The notes under the pieces were generated by a model that was not told the origin of the DNA, did not search any database, and saw only the letters and a list, made by a program, of their open reading frames with translations. From NCBI GenBank assembly GCA_016721005.1, contig JADKJM010000007.1:24571-88570 (forward strand): DNA of 64,000 nucleotides, read 5' to 3'. This DNA comes from Flavobacteriales bacterium (GTDB taxonomy: Bacteria > Bacteroidota > Bacteroidia > Flavobacteriales_F > PHOS-HE28). Below, one piece after another: positions 18,037 through 43,946 of the stretch. The position numbers and the translations under genes were made by a program. Positions within the stretch are counted from its first letter, which is position 1; each line of letters starts with the position of its first letter.

Positions 18037-18157
18037 CCAACCGACAACAATGGCCGTGCCCTTGGGCCAGTGTCGACGTTACTAACACCTGTTAGGAACT
18101 CGCCTTGGGGCTTCGCTTCCCGCGCGGGTACTTTGCTGCCGCCTAAGCCAAGGCTGA

Positions 18158-19956: not shown

Positions 19957-19958
19957 GG

Positions 19959-20091
19959 TACCGCAAAGGGCGCGAAGGACACAAAGGAGAAATGCCAGTG
20001 CCCCATGGAGTACCCAAATAGCGTCAGAAGTCGACCAACACATATGAACCCGAACGCCGCATTCTTCGTGCACTTTGTGCTCTTTGCGGTA
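19959..20091. repeat. Inverted-repeat (REP/MITE-like) element between mksE and mksB
   Basis: Arms TACCGCAAAG-GGCGCGAAG-GACACAAAG and CTTCGTGCA-CTTTGTGCT-CTTTGCGGTA with 9-bp internal periodicity. Confidence 0.75.
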
Positions 20092-20110
20092 TCCATCAGC
20101 CTTTGATCGC

Positions 20111-22855: not shown

Positions 22856-22884
22856 AAGAACCCCGGCTTGGTCGGGGTTCTTTC
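22856..22884 (+). terminator. Rho-independent terminator after mksB
   Basis: AAGAACCCCGGC-ttg-GTCGGGGTTCTTTC. Confidence 0.75.
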
Positions 22885-22918
22885 GTTCCGGATCATTCTC
22901 CCGGTACCTTCCGTCGCG

Positions 22919-27577: not shown

Positions 27578-27668
27578 GGTCGGTGTTGCTTTCCATGGAT
27601 CATCCATCCGTGCCATTTGCTTGCACGGCGTTCAGGTCCTTCCTTCGAACTCGGGAACAATTGACTTC

Positions 27669-27907
27669 ATGAGCAACTCCCCCATCCGCGTCATCGCCTT
27701 CCACAACAAGGACATGGTGTGCGTGGAGGCACACCCGGACCTAAGCCAGCATCGGCGGCCTGGACGCGCAGCCGACTTGATCATGATGGACCGTGAAGCA
27801 TGCTACGGCATGGGCGGACCCTTGAACACGATGCTCGAGTTCAAGAGCGCACCGGCGCGATCACCTTCGCGAAGGTTGAGGTGTATCTCACGAGAATTCG
27901 GGATTGA
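27669..27907 (+). pseudogene. Collapsed remnant: response-regulator 5' end fused to histidine-kinase 3' end
   Basis: About 27560-27790 is a degraded copy of about 33960-34250 (MSNSPIRVIAF...); 27795-27907 is a degraded copy of the kinase 3' end, ending CTCACGAGAATTCGGGATTGA. Confidence 0.85.
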
Positions 27908-27949
27908 TGGGCACTGGCGGGCGAAGGATCTTGGTACCGTCAAGATCCC

Positions 27950-30900
27950 TTGCCGATGAACCCAGCCCTGCGCGTCCCTTATCTTCTTCTTTCCGCAGCG
28001 ATCTCCACCGGAGCGATCGCCCAGAACCCTGTGTTCCAATGGGCGGATGGCGTCCGGAATGTGGAGACACCGGGAACCATGGCCATCGTGAACGGCATTT
28101 CCGTTGCAGGCGACGGCACCGCGTTCATTGTGGGCAAGACCTTCGGTCCGCATACGATCGTGTCGGATACGCTCGTCGGCAGCACCTATTTGGCCCGGTA
28201 CGACCAACAGGGCGAATGCATGTGGGCGCGCACACCGGGCGGTAACGATGTGGCCGCAGCAAGCGGCAACATGGCTTATGTGGTGGGCTCGTTCAGCGGC
28301 ACGCTGCAATTCGGCGCCACCACGCTTTCAGCCAACGGGGTTGATGCCTACCTGGCGAAATATGATGCGGCGGGTTCGCTCCTTTGGGTGCATCAGATCG
28401 GTGGTGCAGGCCTCAACAATGCCTATTCCGTCGCGGTGGACGGACTGGGCATGGTGCATGTGGTCGGACATTTCCAAGGCAGTGCGACCTTCGGTGGCAC
28501 CACATTGATCGCTACGCACGACAGCACGGGCTACTTGGCCACCTACGATGCCAACGGTGTGGACCAATGGGCAGTGATCTGCGGCGGCTTGAACTTCTCG
28601 GCGAACTACATATCCCCGAAAATGGCCATCGACGCCGACGCTTCAGGGAACACCTTCGTGAGCGGTGTGTTCGATGATACCGGGACCTTCGGCACCACTA
28701 CGCTCGCTTCCGCCGATCTCGATGATATCTTCCTCGCCCGTTTCGACGCGGCAGGCGCATGCACTTGGGTGCGAAAGATGGGCGCCTATTCGGGCAACGA
28801 AGTCCATGGCGTGGCTGTGGCCCCTGCTGGCCATATCTACATCTATGGCGGTTTCTGGGGAGACGATGCCCAATTCTGCGGCCCCACACTTTTCAATTCC
28901 CATTTCGGCAATCTGGACATGTTCCTTGCGGAGTATGACGGCGCGGGTATTTGCCAATGGGCACAACACGTGGCACCGGGCTTCTTCAATGACTTTCCCG
29001 GCAACTTGGAAGTGGACGGTCCTGGCAATGCGTGGATCACGGGCTACTACTTCGGAACCACCGGACTGTTCGGTGCCCTGACATTGACCGGCGGTGGCGC
29101 GTTCGTGGCGCGCTATGATCCTGCTGGTAACGCCACACTTGCGGAAAGACTGTACACCGCCACAGATGGCATGATCGGCCTGGGCGCCGATGATGACCTG
29201 TTCATCGCAGGCAACATTGGCGGGAGCGCGGTGTTCGACATGGTCGCGGGAACGAACGTGTTCGCGAACTTCGGCAATGGGATGGGTTACATAGCGCACT
29301 ACGATGCGAGCCACTCTTACCAGTGGGTGCATCAGCTGGGCATGCACGGCGCAGCATACGACGCAGCATCCGCCATCGCGTTGGACAACAGCGGCAATGT
29401 GTACACCACGGGTAACTACAGCGGGTCCGCGATCTTCTGCAACGACACGCTGCATGCATGGCTCGCGGGCAGCAGCATCTTCATCAGCAAACGTGATGCG
29501 AATGGAAACTGCTTGTGGGAGCGGAGCATCGGTGACAGGGGTGCGTTCGGCAACACCACGCTCAACGGCGGAACCTCGATCGCCGTCGATGGCAACGCCA
29601 TCTATGTGGCGGGGAAGTTCGCGGACAGCGTGCGGTTCGGGAACACATCCTTGGTGAGCGCCGGAGGGACGGATCTTTTCCTCGCGCGGTACGATGACAA
29701 TGGCAACTGCATCTGGGCGAGGCGTGGCGGCGGAACGGGCAATGATGCGGGCGCCTCGGTGGGCGTGGATGGTAGTGGACACGTTCTCCTCGCCGGTTCC
29801 TACGCCGCCACCGCCAACATCGGGAATGAGGTCTTCACCAGCCTCGGTTATTCAGATGCGTTCCTGGCCCGCTACGATAGCAACGGGAATTACATCTGGG
29901 GCCGAACGATGGGCGGCAGCGGTTGGGACAATGCGGCGGATGTGGCCGTGGACGCTTCCGGGAACAGCTACGTGACCGGGCGTTTCACTACATCCGCGGC
30001 CTTCGGTGCACTTACCATTTCCGGCACAAGCGATGCGGGCATGTTCCTGGCGAAATACGATGCGATCGGAGATCCGCTCTGGGTGGTGGGCACGACCGGT
30101 GCCGGTTGGCAGGAAGGCACGTCGGTGGTGCAGAACTCATCAGGGAACATCTACGTGACCGGCTCATTCCAAGGAAGTGCGGGTTTCTGCACCACCACCC
30201 TTGAGAGCGATGCGTACTATCACGCGTACCTCTCATGCTATACACCCGATGGCGGTGAACTTTGGACCGAGCAATTCCAGGTCTCCGGTGAAAGTCACGG
30301 GTATGGTCTGGCGGCAAGGCCGGGCGGAAACATCGTGCTTACAGGCACCCTTTCCGGTACAGCCACGTTCGGCAGCACCACCCTGACGAGTGGAAGCTAT
30401 TCCGATGCCTTGATCGCCGCGTTCGAACCGGATGGCACCAGCCTTTGGGCCAGGGGCATGGGCGGCTCCGGAGAGTGGGATTACAGCATGGCGACCACCT
30501 CCGTGGCGGATGCCAACAATGTTTATCTGGTCGGGAGCTATGGTGGCCTCCTGTTCGATGCGAACACCCAAGGAGGCTCCATCACGTTCGATCCAGGTGA
30601 TCCACTTTCGACCATTCTCGCGCCGAACGGACTTGACGCTTTCGTCGCCAAGTTCAGTGTCGCGGAGACCACGGCGAACCCGGTGAACCCGACCCCGTGC
30701 GGTTCGCCGCTCGCAGTTCATGAGGCGAGCATCGAACAGCAGGTGATCCTTTCGCCCAACCCCGTCGTGAATTCCCTAACGCTTGCAGGCGAGTTGCCGT
30801 TCCTTCCCGGGTCGTCCATCATCGTGCGGGACATGACAGGGCGTGCGGTGAATGCGCCCTTCGTGATCAATGCGAACAAGGCGATGGTCGATGCATCAGC

Positions 30901-30976
30901 ACTCGTACCGGGCAGCTACATCGTGTCGGCACGAACATCGAACGGATCGATCGCCGAGCGCTTCATCAAGGAATGA
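27950..30976 (+). CDS. T9SS type A cargo with SBBP-type beta-propeller repeats
   Basis: Repeated D.SGN.YVTG.F, D.FLARYD..G...W; CTD LSPNPVVN...DASALVPGSY...RFIKE. Confidence 0.88.
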   Translation: MPMNPALRVPYLLLSAAISTGAIAQNPVFQWADGVRNVETPGTMAIVNGISVAGDGTAFIVGKTFGPHTIVSDTLVGSTYLARYDQQGECMWARTPGGNDVAAASGNMAYVVGSFSGTLQFGATTLSANGVDAYLAKYDAAGSLLWVHQIGGAGLNNAYSVAVDGLGMVHVVGHFQGSATFGGTTLIATHDSTGYLATYDANGVDQWAVICGGLNFSANYISPKMAIDADASGNTFVSGVFDDTGTFGTTTLASADLDDIFLARFDAAGACTWVRKMGAYSGNEVHGVAVAPAGHIYIYGGFWGDDAQFCGPTLFNSHFGNLDMFLAEYDGAGICQWAQHVAPGFFNDFPGNLEVDGPGNAWITGYYFGTTGLFGALTLTGGGAFVARYDPAGNATLAERLYTATDGMIGLGADDDLFIAGNIGGSAVFDMVAGTNVFANFGNGMGYIAHYDASHSYQWVHQLGMHGAAYDAASAIALDNSGNVYTTGNYSGSAIFCNDTLHAWLAGSSIFISKRDANGNCLWERSIGDRGAFGNTTLNGGTSIAVDGNAIYVAGKFADSVRFGNTSLVSAGGTDLFLARYDDNGNCIWARRGGGTGNDAGASVGVDGSGHVLLAGSYAATANIGNEVFTSLGYSDAFLARYDSNGNYIWGRTMGGSGWDNAADVAVDASGNSYVTGRFTTSAAFGALTISGTSDAGMFLAKYDAIGDPLWVVGTTGAGWQEGTSVVQNSSGNIYVTGSFQGSAGFCTTTLESDAYYHAYLSCYTPDGGELWTEQFQVSGESHGYGLAARPGGNIVLTGTLSGTATFGSTTLTSGSYSDALIAAFEPDGTSLWARGMGGSGEWDYSMATTSVADANNVYLVGSYGGLLFDANTQGGSITFDPGDPLSTILAPNGLDAFVAKFSVAETTANPVNPTPCGSPLAVHEASIEQQVILSPNPVVNSLTLAGELPFLPGSSIIVRDMTGRAVNAPFVINANKAMVDASALVPGSYIVSARTSNGSIAERFIKE

Positions 30977-30986
30977 ACGCCGCGCC

Positions 30987-33980
30987 ATGAGAATGTACAG
31001 AGCCTTCATCACCTCGTTGCTCGCGGCTACGAGCGCGATCGTAATGCAAGGGCAACAGCCCGTGTTCCAATGGGCGGAAGCGGTGAACAACGTCGCCTTC
31101 ATGTATTACTCCGGATGCACGGATGCGGAAGTGGCAGCGGATGGTGCCGTGTATGTCACCGGCCAAGCGAAGGACGCATGGGCGCACGGCTCCTTGATCA
31201 TCGAGAACGAAGTGGCGCGCAGCCCCTTCCTGGCCCGCTACGATGCGAGCGGGGACATGATCTGGGTGCGCCCCGGCGGCTGGGCACTGACCACCGTGGG
31301 CAGCAATGCGATCTATGTGACCGGTGATTTTCACGGCACGAGGGACTTCGGCGGCAGCACTTTCACAGCGGATAGCCTGGACGCCTTCCTGATGCGATAC
31401 GATGCGAACGGCAACGTGATCTGGGCGCGGCAGATGGGCGGCGGAGGAGGCGACAAGGGAATTTCCGTCGCCGTGGATGCCTTGGGACAGGTGCAGGTCG
31501 CCGGCATTTTCCAGGGTTCCGCAACGTTCGGCACCACAACCCTGATCGCCACGCACGATTCCACCGGCTTCCTCGCCACCTACGATGCCAGCGGCAATTT
31601 CATCCGGGCCATGATAGCAGGTGGCACCGACAACGTTGCGTACAACGTCGGTTACAACGTGGATCTGGCATGTGATGCGTCCGGTCACACCTATTGGTTC
31701 GGGATGTTCGATGGAACGGCATCATTCAACGGTACCAACCTCACCAGTTCAAGCGACAATGCAATGGCTCTGGCCCGCTTTGAAAGCAACGGCACCTGCA
31801 CATGGGCGACCCGGATGGGCGGAACCGCGAACATCCCTGCCGGCTTGGGGATCGCGGCCAACGGCAATGCGTATGTCTCTGGCACCTTCAGAGCCAGCGG
31901 CACCTTCGGTACGATCAGCATTCCCGATTCCTTCACTGCCGATGATGCATTCCTCGCGCTCTACGACCCGAACGGTGATCCGATCTGGGCACAGCGCATC
32001 GTCACCTCATCGTCCGCCGAACGCATGTACTCCATCACAGTGAACAGTGCCGGGAACGCCGTCGTCTCCGGTATTTCGGGCGGAACGAGCGCGACCGTTG
32101 GTGCGTCCACCATCACAGGTATTTCAGGCCAATTGACCTACGTGGCGGAGTTCGATGCAACAGGCGCCTTCCAATGGGCCGAACGGCTTTGCACGGCACG
32201 GCCGTTCATTGCCTTGGGTGCCATGGATGATCTCTACCTCTTCGGCAGCGAACTGTTCACTCCCGGATCCAACGGTACCATCTTCGACTTTGACACCGGC
32301 ATCGCGATCGGGGGGGCCGTGTCAGGGCGTACGGACGCCTTTCTCGCCCATTACGATGTTGCACATGACTTCCAATGGTTGCGTGTGATGGGTAGCACGC
32401 CCCCGGCCTACGACCAGGGTGCCGGCATTGTCTCGGATGCGAACGGCAACGTGTACACGGTCGGCAGATATACGGACTCCGCGATCCTGTGCGGGGATAC
32501 CTTGAAGGAATTCCCGGCCGTCAGTTCAGGCTTCCTTAGCAAGCGCGACGGCAGTGGCGCCTGCATCTGGACGCGCGAGTTCGGCACCAGTGGCAACAAC
32601 GTCGCACACGCGATCACGATCGATGGGAATGGAGATCTGATCATTGCAGGCGCGTTCTCTGATACGGTGACCTTGGGATCCGTACAACTGGTGAGCGACG
32701 GCGGCCGCGATCTTTTCGTAGCCAAGTACGACCCGAACGGCGTTTGCCTGTGGGCGAAGCGGGGGGGCGGCACGGCCAATGAAGATGCGACCTCGGTGGC
32801 CGTCAGTGCCAATGGTGATGTGAGCATCGCTGGATCCTACTTCAGCGCGACCACCATTGGAACGGCCACCTTCACGAGTGCGGGCGGCTTCGATATGTTC
32901 ATTGCGCACTACGATGCATCCGGCAACCTCGGCTGGGCGAAAAGCATGGGCGGTGCCGGATACGACCTCCTCGCCGGCCTGGCTCTGGACGCCACAGGCA
33001 ATGCCTATCTCTCCGGGTCCTTTACCGCATCGGCCACCTTCGATACGGAAACCATCATCGGCACCGGAAGTGCCGACATGTTCCTAGCGAAATATGATGC
33101 GACCGGAGACCCGGTGTGGGTGCAAAGCATGCCAGGCACGGGATCGAACACCGGTGCCGCCTTGGTGATCAATGATACCGGGAACCTCTATGTCACCGGC
33201 CATTACTACAACACCATCGATCTTGGGAGCGTCACCCTCACCGGGAGCCCCAGCAACGTCAGGGCCTTTCTTGCCTGTTACACCGATGCAGGCGTGAACC
33301 TGTGGGCGCAGGATATCCAGTCCACCGGAGGGACCGAAGGCTATGCGCTCGCCGCACGGCCGGGAGGCGATATCGTTCTCGCGGGTCAGTTGGTTGGTAC
33401 GGCGGTATTCGCAGGCACCACGCTCACGAGCACAAGCGGCTCTGGCGATGTCCTTCTTGCTGCATATAACGCCGCCGGACAGCCGCTGTGGGCCACGAAC
33501 ATGGGGGGCAACGGCACATGGGATCAGGCGGCGGCAGCGGGCGTCTGTGCAGACGCGGATCACGTCCATGCCACGGGCTACTTCGGTGGTTTGATCTACA
33601 ACTCGGACTACAACGGGGGCTCCATCACCTTTGTGCCGGGTGATCCCAGCACCACGCGCTACGCACCGAACAGCCTGGACGTGTTCGTGGTGAAGTACGC
33701 CATCGATGAGTCCGTGGGCTTGCACCACGTGCTCGTTTCCGCCCCATCGCTCATTCTCTCTCCCAACCCGGTGGATCACTTCTTCACTTTGAGCGGCGAT
33801 GATCTGGAAAGCGGCGCCACTCTCGCGGTGCGTGATATGACGGGCCGCGAAGTGCCCCTCCCCTTCACCATACAAACAAACAAGGCCATGGTCGATGCCT
33901 CTTCGCTTTCATCGGGCAGCTACTCGATCATCGTACGCACTTCTCGCAGCATGATCACGCAGCGCTTCATCAAAGAATAA
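30987..33980 (+). CDS. T9SS type A cargo with SBBP-type repeats (paralog of 27950-30976)
   Basis: Same architecture and collinear motifs (PVFQWA, ATHDSTG, LAARPGG, GGSITF.PGDP); CTD LSPNPVD...RFIKE. Confidence 0.88.
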   Translation: MRMYRAFITSLLAATSAIVMQGQQPVFQWAEAVNNVAFMYYSGCTDAEVAADGAVYVTGQAKDAWAHGSLIIENEVARSPFLARYDASGDMIWVRPGGWALTTVGSNAIYVTGDFHGTRDFGGSTFTADSLDAFLMRYDANGNVIWARQMGGGGGDKGISVAVDALGQVQVAGIFQGSATFGTTTLIATHDSTGFLATYDASGNFIRAMIAGGTDNVAYNVGYNVDLACDASGHTYWFGMFDGTASFNGTNLTSSSDNAMALARFESNGTCTWATRMGGTANIPAGLGIAANGNAYVSGTFRASGTFGTISIPDSFTADDAFLALYDPNGDPIWAQRIVTSSSAERMYSITVNSAGNAVVSGISGGTSATVGASTITGISGQLTYVAEFDATGAFQWAERLCTARPFIALGAMDDLYLFGSELFTPGSNGTIFDFDTGIAIGGAVSGRTDAFLAHYDVAHDFQWLRVMGSTPPAYDQGAGIVSDANGNVYTVGRYTDSAILCGDTLKEFPAVSSGFLSKRDGSGACIWTREFGTSGNNVAHAITIDGNGDLIIAGAFSDTVTLGSVQLVSDGGRDLFVAKYDPNGVCLWAKRGGGTANEDATSVAVSANGDVSIAGSYFSATTIGTATFTSAGGFDMFIAHYDASGNLGWAKSMGGAGYDLLAGLALDATGNAYLSGSFTASATFDTETIIGTGSADMFLAKYDATGDPVWVQSMPGTGSNTGAALVINDTGNLYVTGHYYNTIDLGSVTLTGSPSNVRAFLACYTDAGVNLWAQDIQSTGGTEGYALAARPGGDIVLAGQLVGTAVFAGTTLTSTSGSGDVLLAAYNAAGQPLWATNMGGNGTWDQAAAAGVCADADHVHATGYFGGLIYNSDYNGGSITFVPGDPSTTRYAPNSLDVFVVKYAIDESVGLHHVLVSAPSLILSPNPVDHFFTLSGDDLESGATLAVRDMTGREVPLPFTIQTNKAMVDASSLSSGSYSIIVRTSRSMITQRFIKE

Positions 33981-34071
33981 GGTCGGTGTTGCTTTCCATC
34001 GATCATCCATCCGTGCCATTTGCTTGCATCGCGATCAGGTCCTTCCTTCGAACTCGGGAACAAAAGACTTC

Positions 34072-34743
34072 ATGAGCAACTCCCCCATCCGCGTCATCGC
34101 CTTCGACGACAACAAGGACCTGCGCGACATGTTCCGCATGCTCGTGGACGCGCAGCCCGACATGGTGTGCGTGGCCGTACACCCGGACCTCTCGCAGATG
34201 ATGCGCGACCTCGACGCCGCGAAGCCCGATGTGATCGTGATGGACATCCAGATGCCGGGTCCCGGTTCGGAGACCGGGGTGACGGGCATTTGGGGTGTGC
34301 GTGCGATCAAGGCGCGTTGGCCCGATGCGCGCATTTTGATGCAGACCGTCTTCGAGGATGAGGAGAAGGTCTTCGACGCCATCCGCGCCGGAGCCAGCGG
34401 CTACATCCTCAAGACCTCCAGCGGCGATGAAATGATGAAAGCCATCCGCGATGTGCATGCGGGCGGCTCGGCCATGACGCCTGCCATCGCATTCAAGGTG
34501 CTCGAACATTTTCGCGTGAGTGCGCCGCCAAGCGAAGCACGACCGATGGACCCCGGTTTGAGCGAGCGCGAAAAGAGCGTACTGACGTTGTTGGTGAAAG
34601 GCCGCAGCTACAAGATGATCGCGGACGAGCTCGGCATCAGCTACCACACCGTGGACAGCCACATCCGGCGCATCTACGAAAAGCTGCATGTGGCCAGCGG
34701 CACCGAGGCGGTGAGCAAGGCGCTGCGGGACCGGCTGGTGTGA
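34072..34743 (+). CDS. NarL/LuxR-family response regulator
   Basis: FDDN, VMDIQMPG, GASGYILK, LSEREKSVL...G.SYKMIADELGISYHTVDSHIRRIYEKLHV. Confidence 0.95.
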   Translation: MSNSPIRVIAFDDNKDLRDMFRMLVDAQPDMVCVAVHPDLSQMMRDLDAAKPDVIVMDIQMPGPGSETGVTGIWGVRAIKARWPDARILMQTVFEDEEKVFDAIRAGASGYILKTSSGDEMMKAIRDVHAGGSAMTPAIAFKVLEHFRVSAPPSEARPMDPGLSEREKSVLTLLVKGRSYKMIADELGISYHTVDSHIRRIYEKLHVASGTEAVSKALRDRLV

Positions 34744-34771
34744 TCCCGCTCGCTCACCGTGTGGCACAACC

Positions 34772-35398
34772 TCACGCCGAAGCCCTACCCAACGCCGGAT
34801 CGCTCTTCGCCCCTTCCCCGGCAGCACCCACGGCGCTCACGAGGAACCAATACGGCTTGAACGGCCCCAAGCCCTCCACCAGAAAGCGCACTTTTCCGGT
34901 CACGGTGAGCAAGGTCAACTTCGCGGCCGGGTCTGCGGGATCCTGGTCGGTGGAATACAGCCGGTAGAAATCCGCGCCATGCACCCCTTTCCAGAGCACG
35001 TCCACCTCGCCGGTGATCCCGGTCATGCGCGCGTACCGGATGGTCGGAATGCCCACCGGACCCACCGGCTCCGGGAATTTGGCCAGCGGATAGCCACTGC
35101 TCTCCAGAATGGTGAGGTCGCCGTTGCCCTGCACGCGCACGTAATCGGCCTGTGTGCGCAACATGTTTCGGCCCTGTTTGGCCAGGTCGTCGCGCAAGAG
35201 GCGGTCGTGGCGCGCACCGTTGGTGGCCACTTGGATCGCGGTCTCCAGATCATCCGCCAAGGTGGTCATGGTGGCCAACGGGATCGGGGGTGCGGGAAAG
35301 CTCGCATTCGCCATGAGGTGGGCGATCACATTGCGCAACAGCGCGAGCAGGTCGATGTTGCGGAGGCGGGAAAGGGCCAGTTTGATATTCGCACGCAT
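34772..35398 (-). CDS. Cytoplasmic protein with helical N-terminus and C-terminal fibronectin type III domain
   Basis: FPAPPIPL, SSGYPL, then W...GA..Y...Y...GL...KPYWF.VSAVGAAGEG..SD FN3 pattern; no signal peptide. Confidence 0.8.
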   Translation of the reverse strand: MRANIKLALSRLRNIDLLALLRNVIAHLMANASFPAPPIPLATMTTLADDLETAIQVATNGARHDRLLRDDLAKQGRNMLRTQADYVRVQGNGDLTILESSGYPLAKFPEPVGPVGIPTIRYARMTGITGEVDVLWKGVHGADFYRLYSTDQDPADPAAKLTLLTVTGKVRFLVEGLGPFKPYWFLVSAVGAAGEGAKSDPALGRASA

Positions 35399-35575
35399 GG
35401 CAAGGGGCTTTTGATGGACCGGAGCCGACCGGGGGATGGTTATGGCACCTGAACGCCGCCGTGTATCCCTTGGTACATGGCCTTTTCCGGTATGCGGAAA
35501 CGCATGGAATATGCCCGCACGGCCAAGCGGGGCGTATGCGGAACAGAATAGTTCATGCGGCATCGCATATCGGGC

Positions 35576-35918
35576 CAAGTAGACCATCTTGGTGGGTCAA
35601 GTACCCCGACCCGATGGACCAAGTACCCCGACCTGATACACCAAGTACCCCGACTTGATGAGCCAAGTAGCCCGACTTGATGGGCCAAGTACCCCGACCC
35701 GATGGGCCAAGTACCCCGACTTGATGGGCCAAGTACCCCGACTTGATGAGCCAAGTAGCCCGACTTGATGGGCCAAGTACCCCGACCCGATGGGCCAAGT
35801 ACCCCGACCCGATGGGCCAAGTACCCCGACTTGATGGGCCAAGTACCCCGACTTGATGGGCCAAGTACCCCGACCTGATACACCAAGTACCCCGACTTGA
35901 TGAGCCAAGTACCCCGAC
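35576..35918. repeat. 22-bp tandem repeat array: 15 clear units (35598-35918) plus one degenerate unit at 35576
   Basis: Consensus CAAGTACCCCGACTTGATGGGC; CAA starts at 35598, 35620, 35642 ... 35906 at exact 22-bp steps. Confidence 0.98.
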
Positions 35919-35923
35919 CCACT

Positions 35924-36208
35924 TCACTCCGACCTCTCCTGTCGCGGGGGCGGGGGCGGTGGCGGTGTATCGAATGTGATGGTGATCCGGCCGGGGTCAT
36001 TGTCCCCGATCATCGTCTCCAACGGGATGCCGAGTACTTCGCAGAGCTTCACCATCTCGGAAAAGCGGGGCTCCACTTCATCGTGCTCAATGTAGCTGAT
36101 GGTGCTCTGGCTCAGTCCCACGCGGTCGCCGGTGTACTCTTGCGTCCAACCCAATGCCACGCGAACAAGCTCCATGCGCTTGCCGCGGGTAAGGGTTCGG
36201 GGTGCCAT
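35924..36208 (-). CDS. XRE-family helix-turn-helix regulator
   Basis: R..LGWTQE..G.RVGLSQSTISYIE.....P......KLCEVLGI; poly-Pro tail. Confidence 0.88.
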   Translation of the reverse strand: MAPRTLTRGKRMELVRVALGWTQEYTGDRVGLSQSTISYIEHDEVEPRFSEMVKLCEVLGIPLETMIGDNDPGRITITFDTPPPPPPPRQERSE

Positions 36209-36414
36209 GGCGGCCGGTGAATAAGGAATGGAACAACGCCATTCCCAGTGATAATGCAGAAAAGCGGCGTTTAGTATGTTTCCGGAGCACCTTTCGTCGG
36301 GTAGGGACGACCGGGACTTGTGGATCCACCACCCCGGTCGCCAATTTTGTTCCCCTCGGAATGCGAAGTGCCACCCCGAGCGCGTTCATCACACCCCCCT
36401 TCCGCTTCGATCAC

Positions 36415-37062
36415 ATGACCAAAAAAACCTACGACCGCTACACCGCGCTCTGGAAGGTCTGCAATGTGCATTGGCAGGCATGGTCCCACTCCGAGCCGTG
36501 CCGGGCGGCCATTGCCGGGCTGCGCGACCGCACCGCAGCCATGGAACCGCTGTTGCCGAGGCTGAATCCGCTCGCCCGGCAGAACGCCTGGCGTCGCGGG
36601 GATATCATTGAACAATTGGCTTCGCGGGTGCTGCGTGCCATGAACCCCCTTCGCCAAATGGCGGCGGACCACCCGGAAATGGGTATGCGCACCGCGCACC
36701 TGCCCAACCGGAACCATCGCAGTTGGGCCCAGCGATCGGATCCGGCCGTGGCCGCCCACGCGGAGGAGGTGTTCGCGCTCGTTATCCAACACATGCTCGA
36801 CCTGCATGCCTATGGCTACGGAACGCAGGAACGGGATGAATTCGCCAAGCAGCTTGCGGACTACCGGGCCGAACAGGACACCCTGAGCTCGGCCCACAGC
36901 GAATACCAATTGCTGCTGGATGGTTGTGCCGCCTTGGTACACGACCATTTGGACCCCGCGATCGCGGATCTGGACGGCGTCGCTGCATTCAAGGAAGCGT
37001 ACCGCCGTTCGCGGGAAGCGCTCGATCGACAACGCGAGGCGGATCGTCCGGAATTCGATTGA
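36415..37062 (+). CDS. Hypothetical all-helical protein (Bacteroidota helical-bundle family)
   Basis: L.AYGY...E.DEF...LADY and LD..........F..AY..SR patterns recalled from uncharacterised Bacteroidota proteins; divergent from the HTH gene. Confidence 0.55.
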   Translation: MTKKTYDRYTALWKVCNVHWQAWSHSEPCRAAIAGLRDRTAAMEPLLPRLNPLARQNAWRRGDIIEQLASRVLRAMNPLRQMAADHPEMGMRTAHLPNRNHRSWAQRSDPAVAAHAEEVFALVIQHMLDLHAYGYGTQERDEFAKQLADYRAEQDTLSSAHSEYQLLLDGCAALVHDHLDPAIADLDGVAAFKEAYRRSREALDRQREADRPEFD

Positions 37063-37078
37063 GCCCGGATCGGGATGC

Positions 37079-37459
37079 CTAGGCCGCCTCCTTGCCGGAA
37101 CCGTCGGCTGCCTTGTGCGTCAAGTGGTAGCCGTGGCAACGCGGGCATTCGTACACGCGCATGCGCCCACGGCCGGTGTTCCAAATGCGGTTGGACTGTG
37201 CATGGGCCCCCACCACGGTATAGATCACCTTATCGTCGCAACGCGGCGCTTCGTGGGTGTGGTGTACAATGCGCGTCCGCGTCAGGTACACCGCGCGGTC
37301 GCACAGGCGCACCACCTCGTGCAATTCCACCTTCTTCAGGTGTTCCAGCACCTTAGTGCGCAGTTCCGGCTCGGTGAAGAGGAAAAGCTCATCCACCAAT
37401 TCGGGGTGGTTCTGGATGAATGCGGCCAGCTTCTGCTGGAGGTCCTTCGCGGTGTTCAT
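37079..37459 (-). CDS. Hypothetical protein with C-terminal C..K..Y...R.YECPRCHGYHLT Zn-binding motif
   Basis: Motif visible in the translation; start MNTAKDL at 37459. Confidence 0.6.
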   Translation of the reverse strand: MNTAKDLQQKLAAFIQNHPELVDELFLFTEPELRTKVLEHLKKVELHEVVRLCDRAVYLTRTRIVHHTHEAPRCDDKVIYTVVGAHAQSNRIWNTGRGRMRVYECPRCHGYHLTHKAADGSGKEAA

Positions 37460-37591
37460 GGCGCATGGTCCTTTCGTGGTTCTGGCCCTATAACGCACGC
37501 CGGGCGGGGACTGTTGCACCCGCAAGAGGGCGCAGCGCGCAAGAAAACCGGTAGGATATACAGGGCTGAGGGGGCGGCCGGGCCCTGCCCC

Positions 37592-38020
37592 CTAATTCAA
37601 ATGCGCGCGCTTCTCCGCACGCATCCGCGCGACCGAGCGCACCACCCACTTGGGGCCATCCCACCGGAAGTACACGGCGTGGTCGGATCGCGGATCGAAG
37701 ACCACGCCCACATCGTCACCTTTTAGCAGGTCGCCCATGAGGTCCATCACGGTACAGGTGAGCACCGCGATGCCTCCCTCCTGCTTGGGCAGCTCCCCCA
37801 AGGTGGTGTACACCCATACCGTGGGGCCCAGATCCGGGTCCCGCATGGTGGCGTATTCCGGCGTTTGATGTTGCCCATTGGCACCGGCGCGTACTTCCAG
37901 CAGCACCGTGCAACTCTTCTCACCGAAGAGTTTGAGCAGTTCCATGGTGTTGTCCTCGTGGCCATTGGCCACGTACCGCTTCAAGGCGGCGTGCAGGATG
38001 GTGTTGGATGGAGGGGCCAT
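37592..38020 (-). CDS. Hypothetical protein, weakly SseB N-terminal-like
   Basis: VWVYTTLGEL and GVVFDPRS patterns; start MAPPSN at 38020. Confidence 0.45.
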   Translation of the reverse strand: MAPPSNTILHAALKRYVANGHEDNTMELLKLFGEKSCTVLLEVRAGANGQHQTPEYATMRDPDLGPTVWVYTTLGELPKQEGGIAVLTCTVMDLMGDLLKGDDVGVVFDPRSDHAVYFRWDGPKWVVRSVARMRAEKRAHLN

Positions 38021-38309
38021 TGGAAGTGGGGTTGATTGGGAGGATAACGGGGCGGGAAGGCGGAAGGTATGCGGGCGGCGACCGATGGACCCGGGGCATT
38101 GCAGGATGCACATCAAGGACAACTCTCGTGCCTTCACTTGCTTTCCCCGGTCGACTCACTATCCGCCCACCGTCTCTTCGAAGACGAAAGGCCCTGCTTA
38201 GGTTTGACGACATCGTTTCAGTTGAACGATGTCGGACATTTACATTCTCCGATCGACCGTTTGTTTCGGCACAATGTGTACTATGAGGTCGCTCGATCTG
38301 ACGTAGAAA

Positions 38310-39587
38310 ATGCCAAAAGCAATAAGTCTTTTTGCCGGCGCTGGAGGATGCTCCCTCGGTTTCAAGCAAGCCAACTATGACATCGTCTTCGCCACTGACT
38401 TCGACAAGGCGGCGATGCAGACATATGCACTGAACTTGTCTGGAGCCAGCATCGCATGCAAAGACATCTGCGAAATTGACTTCCAAGAATTGATGGTAGC
38501 ACTGAAACTCAAGGCCGGGGAACTGGACGTGCTGATCGGTGGTCCACCGTGCCAAGGCTTCAGCACAGCCGGGCCAAGGTTTTGGGATGACCCAAGGAAT
38601 CACCTATTGAAACAATACGTGCGGGCCATCGAAGTCGTCAAGCCGAAGTGGCTCATGATGGAAAATGTCGAAGGGCTCCTCACAACCAAAGGCGGGGAAT
38701 ACGTTGCTGAAGTTGTAAAGGCATTTGTACGTCTCGGCTACCGTGTGCGCATCGAGAAAGTATATGCGCACGAGTATGGTGTTCCTCAGCGTCGGAAACG
38801 GGTGATCATCCTCGGGAATCGGCTTGGCAAAGACTTCACCTTCCCCACCGCTACTGTTCCATCTCACGGACGGATCTTCCGGAGGGGCGGGATCACTTTG
38901 GAGCAAGCCTTTCACGGCCTCCCGCACCCCGGCCATGTAAACCAGCCAGTTCCGTACGACGCCGATATGGAGGGAGAGTGGGCCGCATTCTTGGCGAGCG
39001 ACTCAGGACTTGTCACAGATCACTTCACACCCGAGGTGGAACCCTTGCAGGAACAACGCATTGCGGCTTTGGGCCCCGGTCAGACTATGAAGGATCTACC
39101 TGAACAGCTTCAGCACCCCAGCTTTCAGAAGCGAGCGAATAGACGAGTAATGGATGGCACACCATCCGAAAAGCGTGGCGGATCTCCTTCCGGTTTGAAG
39201 CGACTGCATTACGATGAGCCAAGTCTCACGATCACAGGTGCTGCGACCAGAGAGTTCATCCATCCCATTGAGAACCGCACACTGACCATCCGCGAAGCAG
39301 CACGCGCACAAACATTTCCGGATCACTTCACATTCATTGGAAGTCGATCCGATCGTATCCAGCAGATCGGGAATGCGATCCCACCGTTACTGGCCCGGGT
39401 ATTCGCTGAGCATATCGCCGAGCAGGGATTCCAACGCACATCCCATGAAGGGGAAGGCAGGTTCCTCGGATTCAAGTTGACGAAGTCGCAAGGTCTCAGT
39501 CCGGCATTGGAACGCACCTCGGGCTTGTTGCGCTCCCTGCTTACAACATCACATCAAGAACAACTATATTTTGAGGATGCCGGTTAG
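38310..39587 (+). CDS. C5-cytosine DNA methyltransferase, M.ApaLI-like
   Basis: SLFAGAGG (motif I), GGPPCQGFS (IV), ENVEG (VI), QRRKRVI (VIII), TIREAARAQTFPD, QIGNAIPP; RRVMDGTPSEKRGG recalled from M.ApaLI. Confidence 0.93.
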   Translation: MPKAISLFAGAGGCSLGFKQANYDIVFATDFDKAAMQTYALNLSGASIACKDICEIDFQELMVALKLKAGELDVLIGGPPCQGFSTAGPRFWDDPRNHLLKQYVRAIEVVKPKWLMMENVEGLLTTKGGEYVAEVVKAFVRLGYRVRIEKVYAHEYGVPQRRKRVIILGNRLGKDFTFPTATVPSHGRIFRRGGITLEQAFHGLPHPGHVNQPVPYDADMEGEWAAFLASDSGLVTDHFTPEVEPLQEQRIAALGPGQTMKDLPEQLQHPSFQKRANRRVMDGTPSEKRGGSPSGLKRLHYDEPSLTITGAATREFIHPIENRTLTIREAARAQTFPDHFTFIGSRSDRIQQIGNAIPPLLARVFAEHIAEQGFQRTSHEGEGRFLGFKLTKSQGLSPALERTSGLLRSLLTTSHQEQLYFEDAG

Positions 39588-40611
39588 CGTCACCGTGAAG
39601 ACACTTTTCAATAAGGCTCGTTCACTGGGCACGGGGCGCTTGGAAGTGAGGCTGAGCGGATCGGAATTGTATGGCCTTCTCCTGCTGATCTGCCGCGATC
39701 TCTCCTGGCAGCCGGAGCATATTGGATTGCCTAAGCCTCGCGAGGCCATACCAAAGCAGACCTACTATTCGGTCCCGCCGATCTGGTTCCTGAGCCATAG
39801 CAACGCACCGGATCCCGCAGAGCTTCAGAAGTCGATCGAAACAGCGATCGCCCTTGAGACCGACTTCGGGATGTATTTCTCGAACCTGTGCTCGCTGCAC
39901 AAACGGAGACTCAAATTCCAGCGGATCCTCAGCACGCAGCCGAAACCGACCATGGACCAGGTTGGTACACGTGGGCTGTTGGAGTATGGCACCTATACGA
40001 ACCAATTCCTCTTCAACTGGCTGGTCTGGCGTAAGTGGATCTTCGATCTGGACAACAGATCCGGCCAAGAGACGGGTTACTTATTCGAGCCGGTGCTTAC
40101 ACGTTGCCTCGGCGGTGAAGCTATCGATGCCAATTCGTCTCCAGTCAAGCGCATCGGAGAAAATGGCGAACCCAAGAAGGAAGGCAGGCAGATCGATTGT
40201 TATGTCGAAGACGAGAAGCTGGCCTATGAGTTCAAGATCCGGTTGACCATCGCGGCAAGCGGACAAGGCCGCTGGGACGAAGAGTTATCCTTCCCGGGAG
40301 AATGTGTTGCGGCGGGTCTTCGTCCGGTGCTCATTGTACTGGACCCAACTACTTCGAACCGCTTTGAGCAGTTGAGGGACCTCTTCTTGAGTCTTGGCGG
40401 CTTGGTGTTCGTGGGTGAAGCAGCTTGGAGCCATATTGAGGAACGTGCAGGCCGTACAATGGCCCGCTTCGTTGAGAATTACATCAAGCCGGCTCTCGAT
40501 GCGGCGAGCGAATTCGACACCGCACAGCTAGCGCCGATCTCTATGAGTTGGTTGGATGGATCGGTGGTTATTCGTATTGGAGACAAGGAACACAAGATCG
40601 AACGCGAATGA
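39571..40611 (+). CDS. Type II restriction endonuclease, ApaLI-like (predicted GTGCAC)
   Basis: WRKWIFDLDNRSGQETGYLFEP, GRQIDC, AYEFKIRLTIAASGQGRW.EELSF recalled from R.ApaLI; overlaps the MTase stop. Confidence 0.8.
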   Translation: MRMPVSVTVKTLFNKARSLGTGRLEVRLSGSELYGLLLLICRDLSWQPEHIGLPKPREAIPKQTYYSVPPIWFLSHSNAPDPAELQKSIETAIALETDFGMYFSNLCSLHKRRLKFQRILSTQPKPTMDQVGTRGLLEYGTYTNQFLFNWLVWRKWIFDLDNRSGQETGYLFEPVLTRCLGGEAIDANSSPVKRIGENGEPKKEGRQIDCYVEDEKLAYEFKIRLTIAASGQGRWDEELSFPGECVAAGLRPVLIVLDPTTSNRFEQLRDLFLSLGGLVFVGEAAWSHIEERAGRTMARFVENYIKPALDAASEFDTAQLAPISMSWLDGSVVIRIGDKEHKIERE

Positions 40612-40678
40612 CGCGTTCTTAGGCCCTAGCACGGTATCCTCATTCGCGCCAGCCTGCCGAGGTAGGTACATTCATCCC

Positions 40679-41365
40679 GTGTCCGCTCCCCGCTACCATA
40701 TCCTGCCCGGCATGCGCCCCCCCGAGGTGCTGCGCTGCGCCTGGCACGACAAGCTCGCGGTGGTACACAAGATGATGCGGCCCTTTGAGGAGTTGCGGCG
40801 CAGGCACCTGAAGGGCGACCGTACGGCGGTGCTGGAGCAAGTGGAGCGCTATACCGCCCCCTCCGGCAACCGCTGGATCGTGGTGTTGCGCGCGCGCAAG
40901 AGCGGCATACAGGTGTACCACTTCGTGTGGTACCGCGGCACGGACAACCGCATACGCGCCATGCGCATCCGCTGGGACGGCGGGGGCCAGGCGCACTTCA
41001 GTTGGCATGTGCTGGAGCAATACGCGGCGCGCTTCAGCCCGGATGTGGAAGCCGAGGAGCGGCTCTTGCAGTTCGTGACCGAGAACTACGATGTGGCCTT
41101 CAAGGCCGAGGTGATCGACGAGGACAACTCGAACATGAACATGTTCGGCGGCATCCGCCAAGGCCTGCTGTTCGGGGTGCTCGATGAGAAGGCGGACATC
41201 GTGTACATCACCACCTTCGTGGACCACAGCCTGTTCTTTCCCGACCAGGTGAAGCTGATGGAGCAACTGGACTTCCAGCGTTTCATGGGCAGCCTTTCGG
41301 ATGGGCAACGCCAGGCCATCCTGGAGAAAAGGCGAAAACAGGAGGGCGGCGAGGAGGGGCCGTGA
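40679..41365 (+). CDS. Hypothetical protein
   Basis: Open frame with host-like codon usage; HFSWHVLEQYAARF and ITTFV motifs; GTG start uncertain (alternative ATG 40712). Confidence 0.6.
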   Translation: MSAPRYHILPGMRPPEVLRCAWHDKLAVVHKMMRPFEELRRRHLKGDRTAVLEQVERYTAPSGNRWIVVLRARKSGIQVYHFVWYRGTDNRIRAMRIRWDGGGQAHFSWHVLEQYAARFSPDVEAEERLLQFVTENYDVAFKAEVIDEDNSNMNMFGGIRQGLLFGVLDEKADIVYITTFVDHSLFFPDQVKLMEQLDFQRFMGSLSDGQRQAILEKRRKQEGGEEGP

Positions 41366-41371
41366 TCACGA

Positions 41372-41494
41372 TCACAACACCCCCATCGGCACCCGTGTGC
41401 CGCGCTTGCCGTTGCACTTGCGCACGCTGCCGTGGCTGGCGGCACAAGAGGCGAGCAGGGCGATCAGGAGCAGGGCGGCTATCAGGCGCTTCAT
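41372..41494 (-). CDS. Small (40-aa) putative lipoprotein
   Basis: MKRLIAALLLIALLAS-CAASHGSVRKC: basic N-terminus, hydrophobic core, lipobox. Confidence 0.6.
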   Translation of the reverse strand: MKRLIAALLLIALLASCAASHGSVRKCNGKRGTRVPMGVL

Positions 41495-41609
41495 ATGGGA
41501 ACAACGCAGCAAGGCACCTTCGGCGTATGGGATCGAACGCGATCGTCCGTCCACGTGTACAGCATGCAACAGACCCGGCGGATACCTTCGCCCAAGCAAC
41601 CCGAACCCC

Positions 41610-43250
41610 ATGCGACTCCCCCACCTTGCACTTTCCACGTTCCTTCTTTGTTCGTTCCACGCCATTGCCGCCGAGGGCGAGAAACCCATCACCAGCAAGG
41701 TGAGCGAGGTGAAGGTCTTCCTCAGCGGCGCACAGGTCTCGCGCACGGCCAGCAGTTCGGTGCCGTCGGGCACGAGCACGTTCGTGTTCACCGGCCTCGC
41801 GCAGGGCATCGACCCCCAGAGCATCCAGGTCACGGGCAAAGGCGGGTACAGCATCCTCAGTGTGAACCACCGGATCAACTACCTCACCGAGAGCCCGAAG
41901 AAGAAGGAGATCGAGGACTTGCAGGCGAAGATCAAGAAATTGGAAAAGGACTGGGCGTTCGAGAAAGCCATGCAGGACGTGTGGGCGAACGAAGAACAAT
42001 TGCTCGGCAAGAATTCGGTGGTGGGTGGTCAGCAGAATGGTTTGACGGCCACGCAGCTCACGGCCGTGAACGATTACATCCGCCAGCGCTTGATCGCCAC
42101 CAAGACCAACTGGCTCGCGCAGCAGGAGAAGCTCGTCGGCATCCAGCAGGAGAAGGAGAAGCTGGTGCAGCAGATGCAGCAATATCAAGCGCAGGCCCCG
42201 CGTCCCACGAGCGAGATCGTGGTGGAGATCAGCAGCACGGTGGAGGTGAGCGCAAGCTTTACCCTCACCTACTTCCTTGGCAACGCGGGTTGGGTACCGG
42301 CGTATGATCTCCGGGCAAAAGGCGTGGGCCAACCCATCGATCTGCTGATGAAAGCACAGGTGACCAACAACACCGGCGAGGATTGGAACAAGGTGGACAT
42401 GAGCCTGAGCAGCGGCAACCCTACGCTTGGCGGTGTAATGCCGGCCATGAACCCGTGGACGCTCTACGTGGCCCAACTAAACCGCGAACAAACGTTGTCC
42501 ACACGCGGGATGCGCGCCGCGGATTCCGATAAGGCCGGTTCGTTCGCACGCCCCAGCGTCGCATCCGGTGCCGAAGTGAGTTTGAAGGAGATGGAGGAGA
42601 CCCCAGCCAGTTACACATGGGCAGGCGCGGTGAACCAACGCACCACCACCGTGGAGTTCGTGATCGAAACACCGTTCACTGTTCCCAGTGATGGGACGCC
42701 GCACATGATCGGCGTGCAGAACCACAGCATCCCCGCCACCTACAAGCATTACGCAACACCCAAGTTGGACAAGGACGCTTTCCTCTACGCGCGCACTACG
42801 GGTTGGGAGGATCTGAACCTCCTGCCCGGCCAAGCGAACGTGTTCTTCGAAGGCACCTTCGTGGGCGAGAGCTACTTGCAACTGGATATCCCGAAGGACA
42901 CGTTGGAGATCTCGCTGGGGCGTGATAAAGGCGTGACCGTGGAGCGCGTGCGCCGCAAGAGCACGAACGAGAAGGCCACGATCGGCAGCAAGCGCACGAT
43001 CACCGTTGGTTGGGATATCACCGTGCGCAACACCAAAGGCACGGCAGTGGACCTGGAACTGCGCGACCAGTATCCCCTCAGCCCGCAGAGTGAGATCGAG
43101 GTGAAGCTGGAAGAGAACGGCGGCGGCGTGGTGGATGAGAACAAGGGGTCGCTCACGTGGAACTTCCGTGTGGAGCCCAAGGCGACGAAGAAGCTCGGCT
43201 TCTCCTACACGGTGAAACATCCGAAGGACCTGCCGGTGGTGGTGGAATAG
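41610..43250 (+). CDS. DUF4139/DUF4140 (MuiA-family) exported protein
   Basis: SKVSEVKVFLSGAQVSR, AGWVPAYDLR, AQVTNNTGEDW..V...LSSGNP, TPKLD..AFL, LSLGRDKGVTVER. Confidence 0.9.
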   Translation: MRLPHLALSTFLLCSFHAIAAEGEKPITSKVSEVKVFLSGAQVSRTASSSVPSGTSTFVFTGLAQGIDPQSIQVTGKGGYSILSVNHRINYLTESPKKKEIEDLQAKIKKLEKDWAFEKAMQDVWANEEQLLGKNSVVGGQQNGLTATQLTAVNDYIRQRLIATKTNWLAQQEKLVGIQQEKEKLVQQMQQYQAQAPRPTSEIVVEISSTVEVSASFTLTYFLGNAGWVPAYDLRAKGVGQPIDLLMKAQVTNNTGEDWNKVDMSLSSGNPTLGGVMPAMNPWTLYVAQLNREQTLSTRGMRAADSDKAGSFARPSVASGAEVSLKEMEETPASYTWAGAVNQRTTTVEFVIETPFTVPSDGTPHMIGVQNHSIPATYKHYATPKLDKDAFLYARTTGWEDLNLLPGQANVFFEGTFVGESYLQLDIPKDTLEISLGRDKGVTVERVRRKSTNEKATIGSKRTITVGWDITVRNTKGTAVDLELRDQYPLSPQSEIEVKLEENGGGVVDENKGSLTWNFRVEPKATKKLGFSYTVKHPKDLPVVVE

Positions 43251-43682: not shown

Positions 43683-43946
43683 CTGCGACCCTGCCGTACG
43701 GCAGGTCGGAACGCGATCGCTTGATGTTGCTATATGCTGTGACCCCTTCGGGGTCCAAACGACCCGCAGGTACTGACCCCGGAGGGGTCACAGCCTGTAG
43801 AAAACGATGACACGGATCGATCGACTTGATGTTGCTATATGCTGTGACCCCTTCGGGGTCCATACGACCCGCAGGTACTGACCCCGGAGGGGTCACAGCC
43901 TGTAGAAAATGATGACACGGAACGATCGACCCTGAAGGGGTCGCAG
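43683..43946. repeat. REP cluster (six GACCC-type palindromes; 105-bp direct duplication)
   Basis: TGTGACCCCTTCGGGGTC / GACCCCGGAGGGGTCACA inverted pairs repeated at 43720 and 43825; outer CTGCGACCC...GGGGTCGCAG. Confidence 0.9.

Follow-up and report, generated by a model that had tools for sequence, protein, structure and literature searches.

The iterons of plasmid replication origins (R6K gamma ori, pPS10, RK2 oriV) are direct repeats of 17-22 bp, phased at about 22 bp and bound by a protein encoded in cis, and the constant register of the 22-bp iterons goes together with protein binding to one face of the helix. In the partition loci sopB-sopC of F, parC-parR of R1 and omega of pSM19035, the gene of the binding protein adjoins the centromere array, which, once coated cooperatively, forms a higher-order nucleoprotein complex with a repressing effect on transcription as well. 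Here we describe a cassette in which a long array of phased repeats precedes a gene for a small protein with an FN3 domain. It was found in a 64,000-nucleotide stretch of the genome of a Flavobacteriales bacterium (GenBank contig JADKJM010000007.1, positions 24,571 to 88,570), hereafter called the window. In gene order, the window cassette comprises a gene for an XRE-family helix-turn-helix (HTH) protein, a tandem array of 22-bp units, a leader with a promoter-like element, and the FN3-type gene. The array-FN3 cassette is real, conserved and undescribed. Searches of the full-text literature found nothing relevant to it, and the known families (PADLOC, NCBIfam, Pfam, Rfam) held nothing for it except HTH_3 and fn3.

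Homologs of the FN3-type protein (30-93% identity) are nearly all from uncultured Flavobacteriales, and the layout of array plus FN3 gene recurs in more than 40 loci of these bacteria. In all of the first three contexts inspected a co-oriented HTH gene was present 600-850 bp upstream, and two of the three gaps contained arrays (44 bp x 7.9 and 66 bp x 6.6 units). Arrays and XRE genes were counted in the 43 distinct related loci (designated by L and a number) that had sufficient upstream DNA. Tandem Repeats Finder (TRF) reported an array with a base period of 22 bp (or 44, 66, 88, 132) or 21 bp (42, 63, 84) in 36 of the 43, and a co-oriented XRE homolog was detected upstream of the array in 26 (family hidden Markov model built from the related loci). 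The initial annotation had proposed HTH gene, array and FN3 gene, with a divergent helical gene, as a candidate module without a name, a view that would have been lost if the homologs lacked arrays and HTH neighbours; with these counts, and with the first three elements found together and co-oriented in many independent loci, it can be upheld for these three.

The arrays of the family consist of 5-30 units, typically 13-22, and of roughly 13-30 units in contigs that are not cut at the array. From the end of the array to the FN3 gene downstream the distance is about 100-520 bp (36 array-bearing loci), and the two have the same orientation in every locus. Several TRF-negative loci showed significant autocorrelation at 22/44/66 or 21/42 bp (L005, z=7.0; L013, z=5.4; L025, z=7.0; L068, z=4.4); arrays were not found in L046, L008, L020 and L027. 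The arrays are uniform inside (82-100% matches), yet the unit sequence varies by locus, and paralogous cassettes of one genome have different arrays (L026/L030, L010/L020). An array at the same position and in the same register was found in two clades that are only about 30% identical in protein, and also in a second phylum (L041, a Verrucomicrobia contig). Higher-order periods of 44, 66, 88 and 132 bp point to ongoing block duplication. The array span is equal in four near-identical genomes (L042-L045). Many short contigs stop inside the array, an expected assembly artefact that makes the copy numbers in such contigs unreliable. One locus had 6.8 units in a short-read assembly (L038:4565-4706) versus 19.8 in a 1.68-Mb contig (L039:4292-4706), a gap that is probably due to assembly collapse. 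The loci are situated on long chromosomal contigs of up to 4.5 Mb. No homolog of the FN3 family was detected in 2.9 million viral contigs (IMG/VR) or in 50,697 phage records (GenBank), and the 72,556 plasmids of PLSDB yielded only generic FN3-domain matches.

The features of the window cassette are listed in Table 1. The stop codon of the XRE gene is 5 bp from the first unit of the array, and 173 bp separate the array from the FN3 gene on the same strand. These values, together with the copy number of 15.8, agree with the initial annotation, which gave about 5 bp, 15-16 units and about 180 bp upstream of a co-oriented gene. The array has 87% matches and an 88-bp higher-order period besides 22 bp (TRF). 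The unit consensus GGGCCAAGTACCCCGACTTGAT had 14 matches at ≤3 mismatches, all within the array (0.00 expected from shuffles), and no copy of the unit was present outside the array anywhere in the 64 kb. The term palindromic, which had been applied to the whole array, is appropriate for 8 of the 16 units (CAAGT-N6-ACTTG); the other units have ACCTG or ACCCG as the second arm, and palindromy is not a family-wide property of the unit. All three minus-strand frames are open through the array.

Table 1. Coordinates of the cassette features in the window, of the adjacent open reading frame (ORF) and of the candidate RNA in the 5′ untranslated region (5′UTR) of related loci
Feature	Position	Strand	Description
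XRE-family (HTH_3) gene	35924-36208	-	94 residues, short Pro-rich C-terminal tail; Pfam HTH_3 E=2.4e-13
Tandem array	35572-35918	-	22 bp x 15.8 units; TRF score 498; gene-strand unit GTCGGGGTACTTGGCCCATCAA
Distal leader	35489-35568	-	Palindrome ATGCGATGCCGCAT; box GCATGAACTATTCTGTTCCGCATA (35535-35558); second box ATATTCCATGCGTTTCCGCATACC (35489-35512)
Promoter-like element of the extracytoplasmic function (ECF) sigma type	35448-35476	-	GTACC-N16-CGTTCAGG, variant of the family motif AAC-N16/17-CGTTGCA
Presumed 5′UTR	35399-35447	-	Box CATAACCA (35437-35444); small hairpin CCGG-TCGGCT-CCGG (35419-35432)
FN3-type gene	34772-35398	-	208 residues; three-helix bundle + FN3 domain; AlphaFold pLDDT (predicted local distance difference test) 91.5
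Divergent helical ORF, outside the module	36415-37062	+	215 residues; no Pfam, PADLOC or NCBIfam match
5′UTR RNA candidate	L009:3947-4003, L012:3947-4003, L013:2014-2072, L029:3946-4003, L065:423-481, and 15 further loci		

The module had been given too wide a span (34772-37062), which takes in the divergent helical ORF. This gene is present as described, on the plus strand, and has no counterpart in the related loci: only one homolog, 90% identical, turned up in a search of 5.8 billion proteins, and no tblastn match was obtained in loci L001-L037. It was rejected as a member of the module on these grounds, and is best regarded as an orphan outside it.

Judged from its distribution, the XRE gene is accessory and appears to be a later addition, and the core of the cassette is array, leader and FN3 gene, because the XRE gene is present in only 26 loci and 12 arrays have none (L047, L028, L069, L051 and all 21-bp arrays). 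The 21-bp arrays are those of L024, L035, L070, L078 and the distant clade L039-L045, which includes the Verrucomicrobia contig; every XRE-linked array has a 22-bp period. In a rough neighbour-joining tree the XRE-less 21-bp loci were basal, whereas the combination of XRE gene and 22-bp period was derived, with repeated later loss of the XRE gene. Among the array-bearing loci without an XRE gene, L047 (70% FN3 identity to the window) has a 22 bp x 15.3 array preceded by a gene for a type IX secretion system (T9SS) protein and no XRE gene; CCATCAAGTCG is common to its array and the window unit. Where the XRE gene is present in relatives, its distance to the array is 5-350 bp. The recognition helix varies among the XREs, and related XREs pair with related units (L029/L075, L012/L037, L016/L056). 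Outside the arrays, a position-weight-matrix scan found no unit-like site within ±1.5 kb, and none at the promoters of the XRE and FN3 genes; with the same result obtained for the 64-kb window, the existence of array-like operators elsewhere in these regions was rejected. The initial annotation had suggested that the HTH protein coats the array. Because the HTH gene is not obligatory in array-bearing loci, this cannot be the general mechanism; within the XRE-bearing clade, the HTH protein may still bind the array.

In part of the distant 21-bp clade a conserved divergent gene is located upstream of the array (L039:3617-4177, L045:2338-2904 and L043:2337-3041, all on the minus strand). It encodes a His/Leu/Pro-rich protein of 186-190 residues with Cys (38% identity, E=7.6e-24) that has no Pfam match, and it may be an alternative partner where the XRE gene is absent.

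Array and gene are separated by a leader of about 200-250 bp with conserved blocks. The blocks include a distal box (GCATnAAnTATTC...GCATA) and one or two palindromes of the form ATnCS-N4-SGnAT, whose position is kept and whose half-sites are locus-specific; the palindromes are also present in the XRE-less loci L047 and L008, and the boxes in L047. The leader variant of the window is common to L007, L010, L047 and L048. The strict motif AAC-N16/17-CGTTGCA was matched 25 times in related loci totalling 1.07 Mb; 23 of these matches are located about 85 nt upstream of an FN3 start. In alignments A3 and A5 its CGT does not vary. The window carries a variant form of the motif, GTACC-N16-CGTTCAGG. 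Promoters read by ECF sigma factors have an AAC element at -35 and a CGT element at -10, and in these two elements and their spacing the family motif resembles an ECF-sigma-type promoter. Sigma-54 and Bacteroidetes sigma-A were also considered as readers of the box and were rejected upon inspection, as neither spacing nor motifs fitted. No ECF sigma gene was detected among the window ORFs scanned. In L042-L045 an ECF sigma gene (Sigma70_r2/r4_2, 195 residues), accompanied by a gene for a 72-residue partner, is located at 6757-7559, about 2 kb downstream of the FN3 gene; its product is a candidate reader of AAC-N16/17-CGTTGCA.

In the 5′UTR of about 20 loci, which do not include the window, the loop CGGrUCC of a hairpin (P2) is able to pair with a box, GGAyC, at the 5′ end. 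In alignment A6 83.9% of the cells pair versus 72.2% in shuffles, and 24 cells were changed on both sides versus 8.1 expected (0/500 shuffles). The P1 pair is C-G in seven sequences and U-A in seven; in L060 the pair is kept as U-G, and L049 and L050 have a plain GGAUCA...UGAUCC hairpin. The 5′UTR covariance model recovered 20 loci with zero background. The comparison makes this element of a subclade a candidate for a new cis-regulatory RNA, with a pseudoknot or alternative pairing. Folding of the window 5′UTR was unremarkable (z=0.99), the covariance model of the pseudoknot subgroup (R1) did not match it, and Rfam gave no match at E≤1 in window positions 30000-42000.

The FN3-family protein is the sole protein kept across the whole family. 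The match of the 208-residue window protein to Pfam fn3 was weak (E=0.038); 21 of 34 homologs pass. In its AlphaFold model, helices 14-28, 41-60 and 63-91 form a three-helix bundle, and a beta-sandwich makes up the C-terminal part. The top PDB matches of the beta-sandwich were all FN3 domains, and the full-length model likewise matched only FN3 domains in PDB and BFVD. The N-terminal bundle, modelled alone with a pLDDT of 91.2, had no PDB neighbour at E<0.9. Neither a nuclease fold nor a known RNA-binding fold was detected by the structure searches. The protein has no evident signal peptide by inspection, consistent with its initial description as signal-less. It is basic (isoelectric point 9.2), and most members of the family are so: values of 9.0-10.0 were obtained for 10 of the 12 proteins checked. 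An exhaustive profile search was dominated by giant multi-FN3 proteins and gave no usable family size.

The closest relative of the window cassette, L046 (93% FN3 identity, same downstream LuxR-type response-regulator gene), is a natural deletion variant. Comparison of L046:1-240 with window positions 35396-35640 revealed that the XRE gene, the array and the distal leader have been lost and that a divergent gene starts about 140 bp upstream. The promoter-proximal leader including the second box is retained, together with an intact FN3 gene.

All arrays have a base period of 21 or 22 bp, which corresponds to about two turns of B-DNA, even though the units differ by locus. A constant register over unrelated sequences points to protein binding on one face of the helix, and arrays that are homogeneous inside yet locus-specific imply a cis-encoded partner that co-diverges with the array. 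The reading that we favour, with a probability of roughly 35%, is that the array serves as a DNA platform in phase with the helix for a protein encoded in the cassette, and that this protein sets FN3 expression from the ECF-type promoter. The array would act as DNA, with 13-30 sites, one per two helical turns, over about 300-600 bp, along which the protein would polymerise. For the derived 22-bp clade, of which the window is a member, the binder would be the XRE repressor, the obvious candidate because of its adjacency to the array, its variable recognition helix and the co-descent of XREs and units. Another binder is needed because the ancestral state appears to be XRE-less. The FN3-family protein is the one remaining protein with a universal link to the array, and in the XRE-less basal clade its basic helical domain would presumably be the binder. 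The resulting nucleoprotein block, directly upstream of a dedicated ECF-sigma-type promoter, would set FN3 expression by silencing or by a threshold, and the 5′UTR could add a second, translational layer. Directly observed are the layout of the cassette and its conservation, the 21/22-bp register, the array sequences specific to each locus, the promoter-like motif and the covariation in the 5′UTR of a subclade; in this scheme we infer array binding, the identity of the binder, the sign of regulation, the sigma class and the role of the FN3 protein.

Several observations weigh against the phased-platform model. The XRE protein is excluded as the general binder by the 12 arrays without an XRE gene and by the apparently XRE-less ancestral state, and the correlation between XRE gene and 22-bp period amounts to only one or two events in the tree. 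In L054 an array like that of the window (ACTTGG.CCATCAAGTCG) adjoins an XRE gene whose product is only about 30% identical and differs in the recognition helix. The lack of array-like operators at any promoter likewise speaks against the XRE protein as the binder. An 11-bp sub-period, expected for the half-sites of a dimer, was prominent in only 7 of 35 arrays, and half-unit periodicity was rejected as a general feature. The N-terminal helices of the FN3 protein are long (15, 20 and 29 residues), unlike known DNA-binding folds. Finally, the array seems dispensable, at least in the short term, because L046 keeps the gene and the promoter-proximal leader after array loss.

Comparison of units between loci revealed some shared sequence. 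Two k-mers were more frequent than in shuffles (AGGGCA, 8 vs 0.9; TCAACA, 7 vs 0.5), the information content of the units was 8.4 bits versus 6.1-6.7 in shuffles, and TTGGATCCAA is common to L030 and the distant L040. The shared k-mers and palindromes suggest common descent or a partly conserved recognition. GATC is present in 12 of 39 units versus 5.3 expected (L009, L018, L029, L030, L040, L047, L054, L060, L062, L065, L075, L078), often at the centre of a palindrome (TTGGATCCAA, TTGATCAA, CAAGATCTTG, GCGATCGC), and may be connected with Dam-type methylation or restriction sites. Besides the open frames of the window array, a heptad ORF (AASTENI)n spans the array of L039; a coding function was nevertheless rejected, as most arrays have stop codons in all frames.

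We give a role of the array as DNA more weight than a role as RNA. The array could be transcribed in the direction of the gene, by read-through from the XRE gene or from a promoter of its own, and act as a type III antitoxin-like RNA or as a CsrB-like sponge on the FN3 protein or its mRNA. The co-orientation of array and FN3 gene in every locus would fit such a transcript, as would the lack of a terminator-like site in the XRE-array and array-FN3 gaps of the window, the excess of G over C and of T over A on the gene strand of most arrays, and the use of RNA structure elsewhere in the cassette, in the 5′UTR. In variant units of the window and of L007 G-U pairs preserve a small stem, which holds for the gene strand only, and over all arrays G-U exceeds A-C on this strand (132 vs 81). 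However, other, non-wobble mismatches were the largest class of the palindrome-breaking variants (202), the stems of L011 and L016 are broken without compensation, and the arrays of L026, L039, L043 and L077 have no stem at all. An RNA hairpin per unit was rejected, as the G-U pattern of the window is not general across arrays. Loop-less palindromes (ATGTTGATCAACAT, ACTTGGATCCAAGT) fit dimer sites on DNA better than hairpins, and for a register of 21/22 nt no reason at the RNA level is evident. The conserved promoter downstream of the array would place the array outside the FN3 mRNA, the protein has neither a nuclease fold nor a known RNA-binding fold, and Rfam had no match in the region searched. 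A function as RNA is thus improbable in our view. The same low probability is assigned to an array with no sequence-specific partner, in which phased DNA alone would form an upstream region that is intrinsically curved or wraps easily, or, as a contingency locus, a spacer prone to recombination that tunes promoter activity through its copy number, the sequence drifting freely under concerted evolution. Such an array would keep its register and not its sequence, as observed, and periodicity does survive in decayed arrays. The 44/66/88/132-bp periods show continuing block duplication, arrays are present without any linked DNA-binding gene, and L046 lost the array and kept the gene. On the other hand, the equal span in L042-L045 gives no sign of rapid change in copy number, the sole difference in copy number (6.8 versus 19.8 units) is probably an assembly collapse, and the k-mers and short palindromes shared beyond shuffles hint at sequence constraint or common descent.

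A neutral minisatellite that persisted by chance upstream of a gene family would explain that the sequence varies by locus and that the array can be lost (L046, L008, L020, L027). It would hardly account for an array retained in place and in register by two clades with only about 30% protein identity and by Verrucomicrobia L041, for an array in 36 of 43 loci, or for a length that stays within roughly 13-30 units where the array does not end the contig, and we consider it quite implausible. Lowest of all we rank the possibility that the arrays are iterons of a small mobile replicon, integrated or defective, or its counterpart of a centromere, with the XRE protein as initiator or centromere binder. 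Phased direct repeats of 22 bp are the classical iteron geometry, a small DNA-binding gene that ends at a repeat array recalls sopB-sopC and parR-parC, and the surroundings are variable or defence-island-like, with restriction-modification (RM) genes in the window, L001 and L042. Against this, no Rep, ParA/ParM/TubZ, integrase or relaxase was found in the window or in related loci, the family has no homolog in the viral and phage collections and only generic FN3 matches in plasmids, the loci are on long chromosomal contigs, and the conserved partner of the array is the FN3 gene and not the HTH gene. The phased-platform model can also be taken further, to a private pair of a new kind, in which the three-helix+FN3 protein, driven by an alternative sigma factor, assembles on its own 300-600-bp array as a locus-specific nucleoprotein body. 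Paralogs in one genome would be made orthogonal by array divergence, and the cassette would serve in conflict or defence, or to mark the chromosome. The XRE protein would be a later safety switch, and the 5′UTR pseudoknot a translational gate. We put this forward as a speculative version, less probable than the platform itself and more probable than the RNA or partner-free readings.

The window is chromosomal Bacteroidota DNA with genes for T9SS-tailed proteins, ClpX/ClpP, LptE and a two-component system. Among the 29 neighbouring ORFs scanned, none had a Rep, ParA, integrase or cas domain, in agreement with the initial annotation. The gene for the LuxR-type response regulator (34072-34743) is convergent with the FN3 gene, and the two stop codons are 28 bp apart. 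Farther along, three large beta-propeller proteins that end in T9SS sorting tails are encoded at 26045-33980, next to the gene of a hybrid histidine kinase (22868-25999) whose domains include Y_Y_Y and propeller domains. On the other side, at 38310-40611 and 2 kb from the cassette, the gene of a C5 cytosine DNA methyltransferase (Pfam E=2.5e-67) runs into the first part of an ORF of 346 residues without family match; the two are probably a type II RM pair, and the GC content dips to 0.55. Related cassettes also often adjoin RM or defence genes (type I RM in L001, HEPN/RadC in L003, HsdM and AAA_15/21 in L042). At 17068-22834 a gene for an MksE domain protein (19378-19956) adjoins an SMC/AAA_23-like ORF of 919 residues (20075-22834), in an MksBEF- or Wadjet-like condensin cluster. 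A 105-bp tandem repeat (2.1 copies, 96% identity) is present at 43714-43930, between a DUF4139 gene and a thioredoxin-like gene, and contains the GC-rich hairpins GTGACCCCTTCGGGGTC and GACCCCGGAGGGGTCAC.

If the array is a protein platform, the cassettes would be natural, helically phased operator arrays of very high multiplicity on bacterial chromosomes; to our knowledge, only the iterons and centromeres of plasmids otherwise show such phased multi-site geometry. They would also provide dozens of naturally orthogonal pairs of array and protein (or array and XRE), which are of interest to synthetic biologists. The cassette points to an unstudied ECF-type regulon and to a candidate cis-regulatory RNA in uncultured Flavobacteriales, organisms that are abundant in activated sludge and freshwater. 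The frequent RM and defence neighbours make a role in genetic conflict worth testing. The arrays break short-read assemblies, as the many contigs that end in them show, and the cassette is therefore under-represented in metagenome-assembled genomes.

Membership of the cassette in the type III toxin-antitoxin, iteron-replicon, partition and CRISPR classes fails on the defining features tested. Unlike CRISPR, the array has contiguous units without spacers, and cas domains are absent from the ORFs scanned. With the type III toxin-antitoxin systems (ToxIN, CptIN, TenpIN) the cassette shares co-oriented, locus-specific tandem repeats upstream of a gene for a protein of about 200 residues, and a defence-island-like neighbourhood. 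It differs in the length of the units (21-22 nt versus 34-45 nt), in the lack of a terminator between array and gene (window), and in a conserved leader of 100-500 bp with its own promoter between the two. Type III repeats are found immediately upstream of the toxin gene; the arrays described here, co-oriented in all loci, end about 100-520 bp upstream, with leader and promoter motif in between. Furthermore, no match to a ToxN/AbiQ-like endoribonuclease was found (Pfam, NCBIfam, PADLOC), the fold being three-helix plus FN3, and the array shows no consistent RNA covariation, its variants being mostly non-compensatory.

The HTH_3 domain and the palindromes of 14-16 bp, the size expected for an XRE dimer, in units of the window and some relatives are reminiscent of XRE/Cro repressors and their operators. 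Unlike those operators, which number 1-3, the window array has 16 tandem sites, which follow the repressor gene and precede the target promoter by 90 bp or more; there is no site at the repressor's own promoter, and many arrays of the family are non-palindromic. Compared with partition loci, the cassette has no ParA, ParM or TubZ NTPase in the loci examined and no plasmid context, and its array persists where the HTH gene is absent. What it has in common with the partition centromeres is a small DNA-binding gene (XRE) that abuts, at 5 bp in the window, a long array of presumed sites. From iteron plasmids it is set apart by its chromosomal location without a Rep initiator, by 13-30 units instead of 3-9, and by a partner that is a three-helix+FN3 protein, absent from plasmid and phage collections, and not a winged-helix Rep fold. 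Like the iteron arrays, however, it is built of direct repeats of locus-specific sequence, phased at 22 bp in the window and at 21 or 22 bp in the related arrays.

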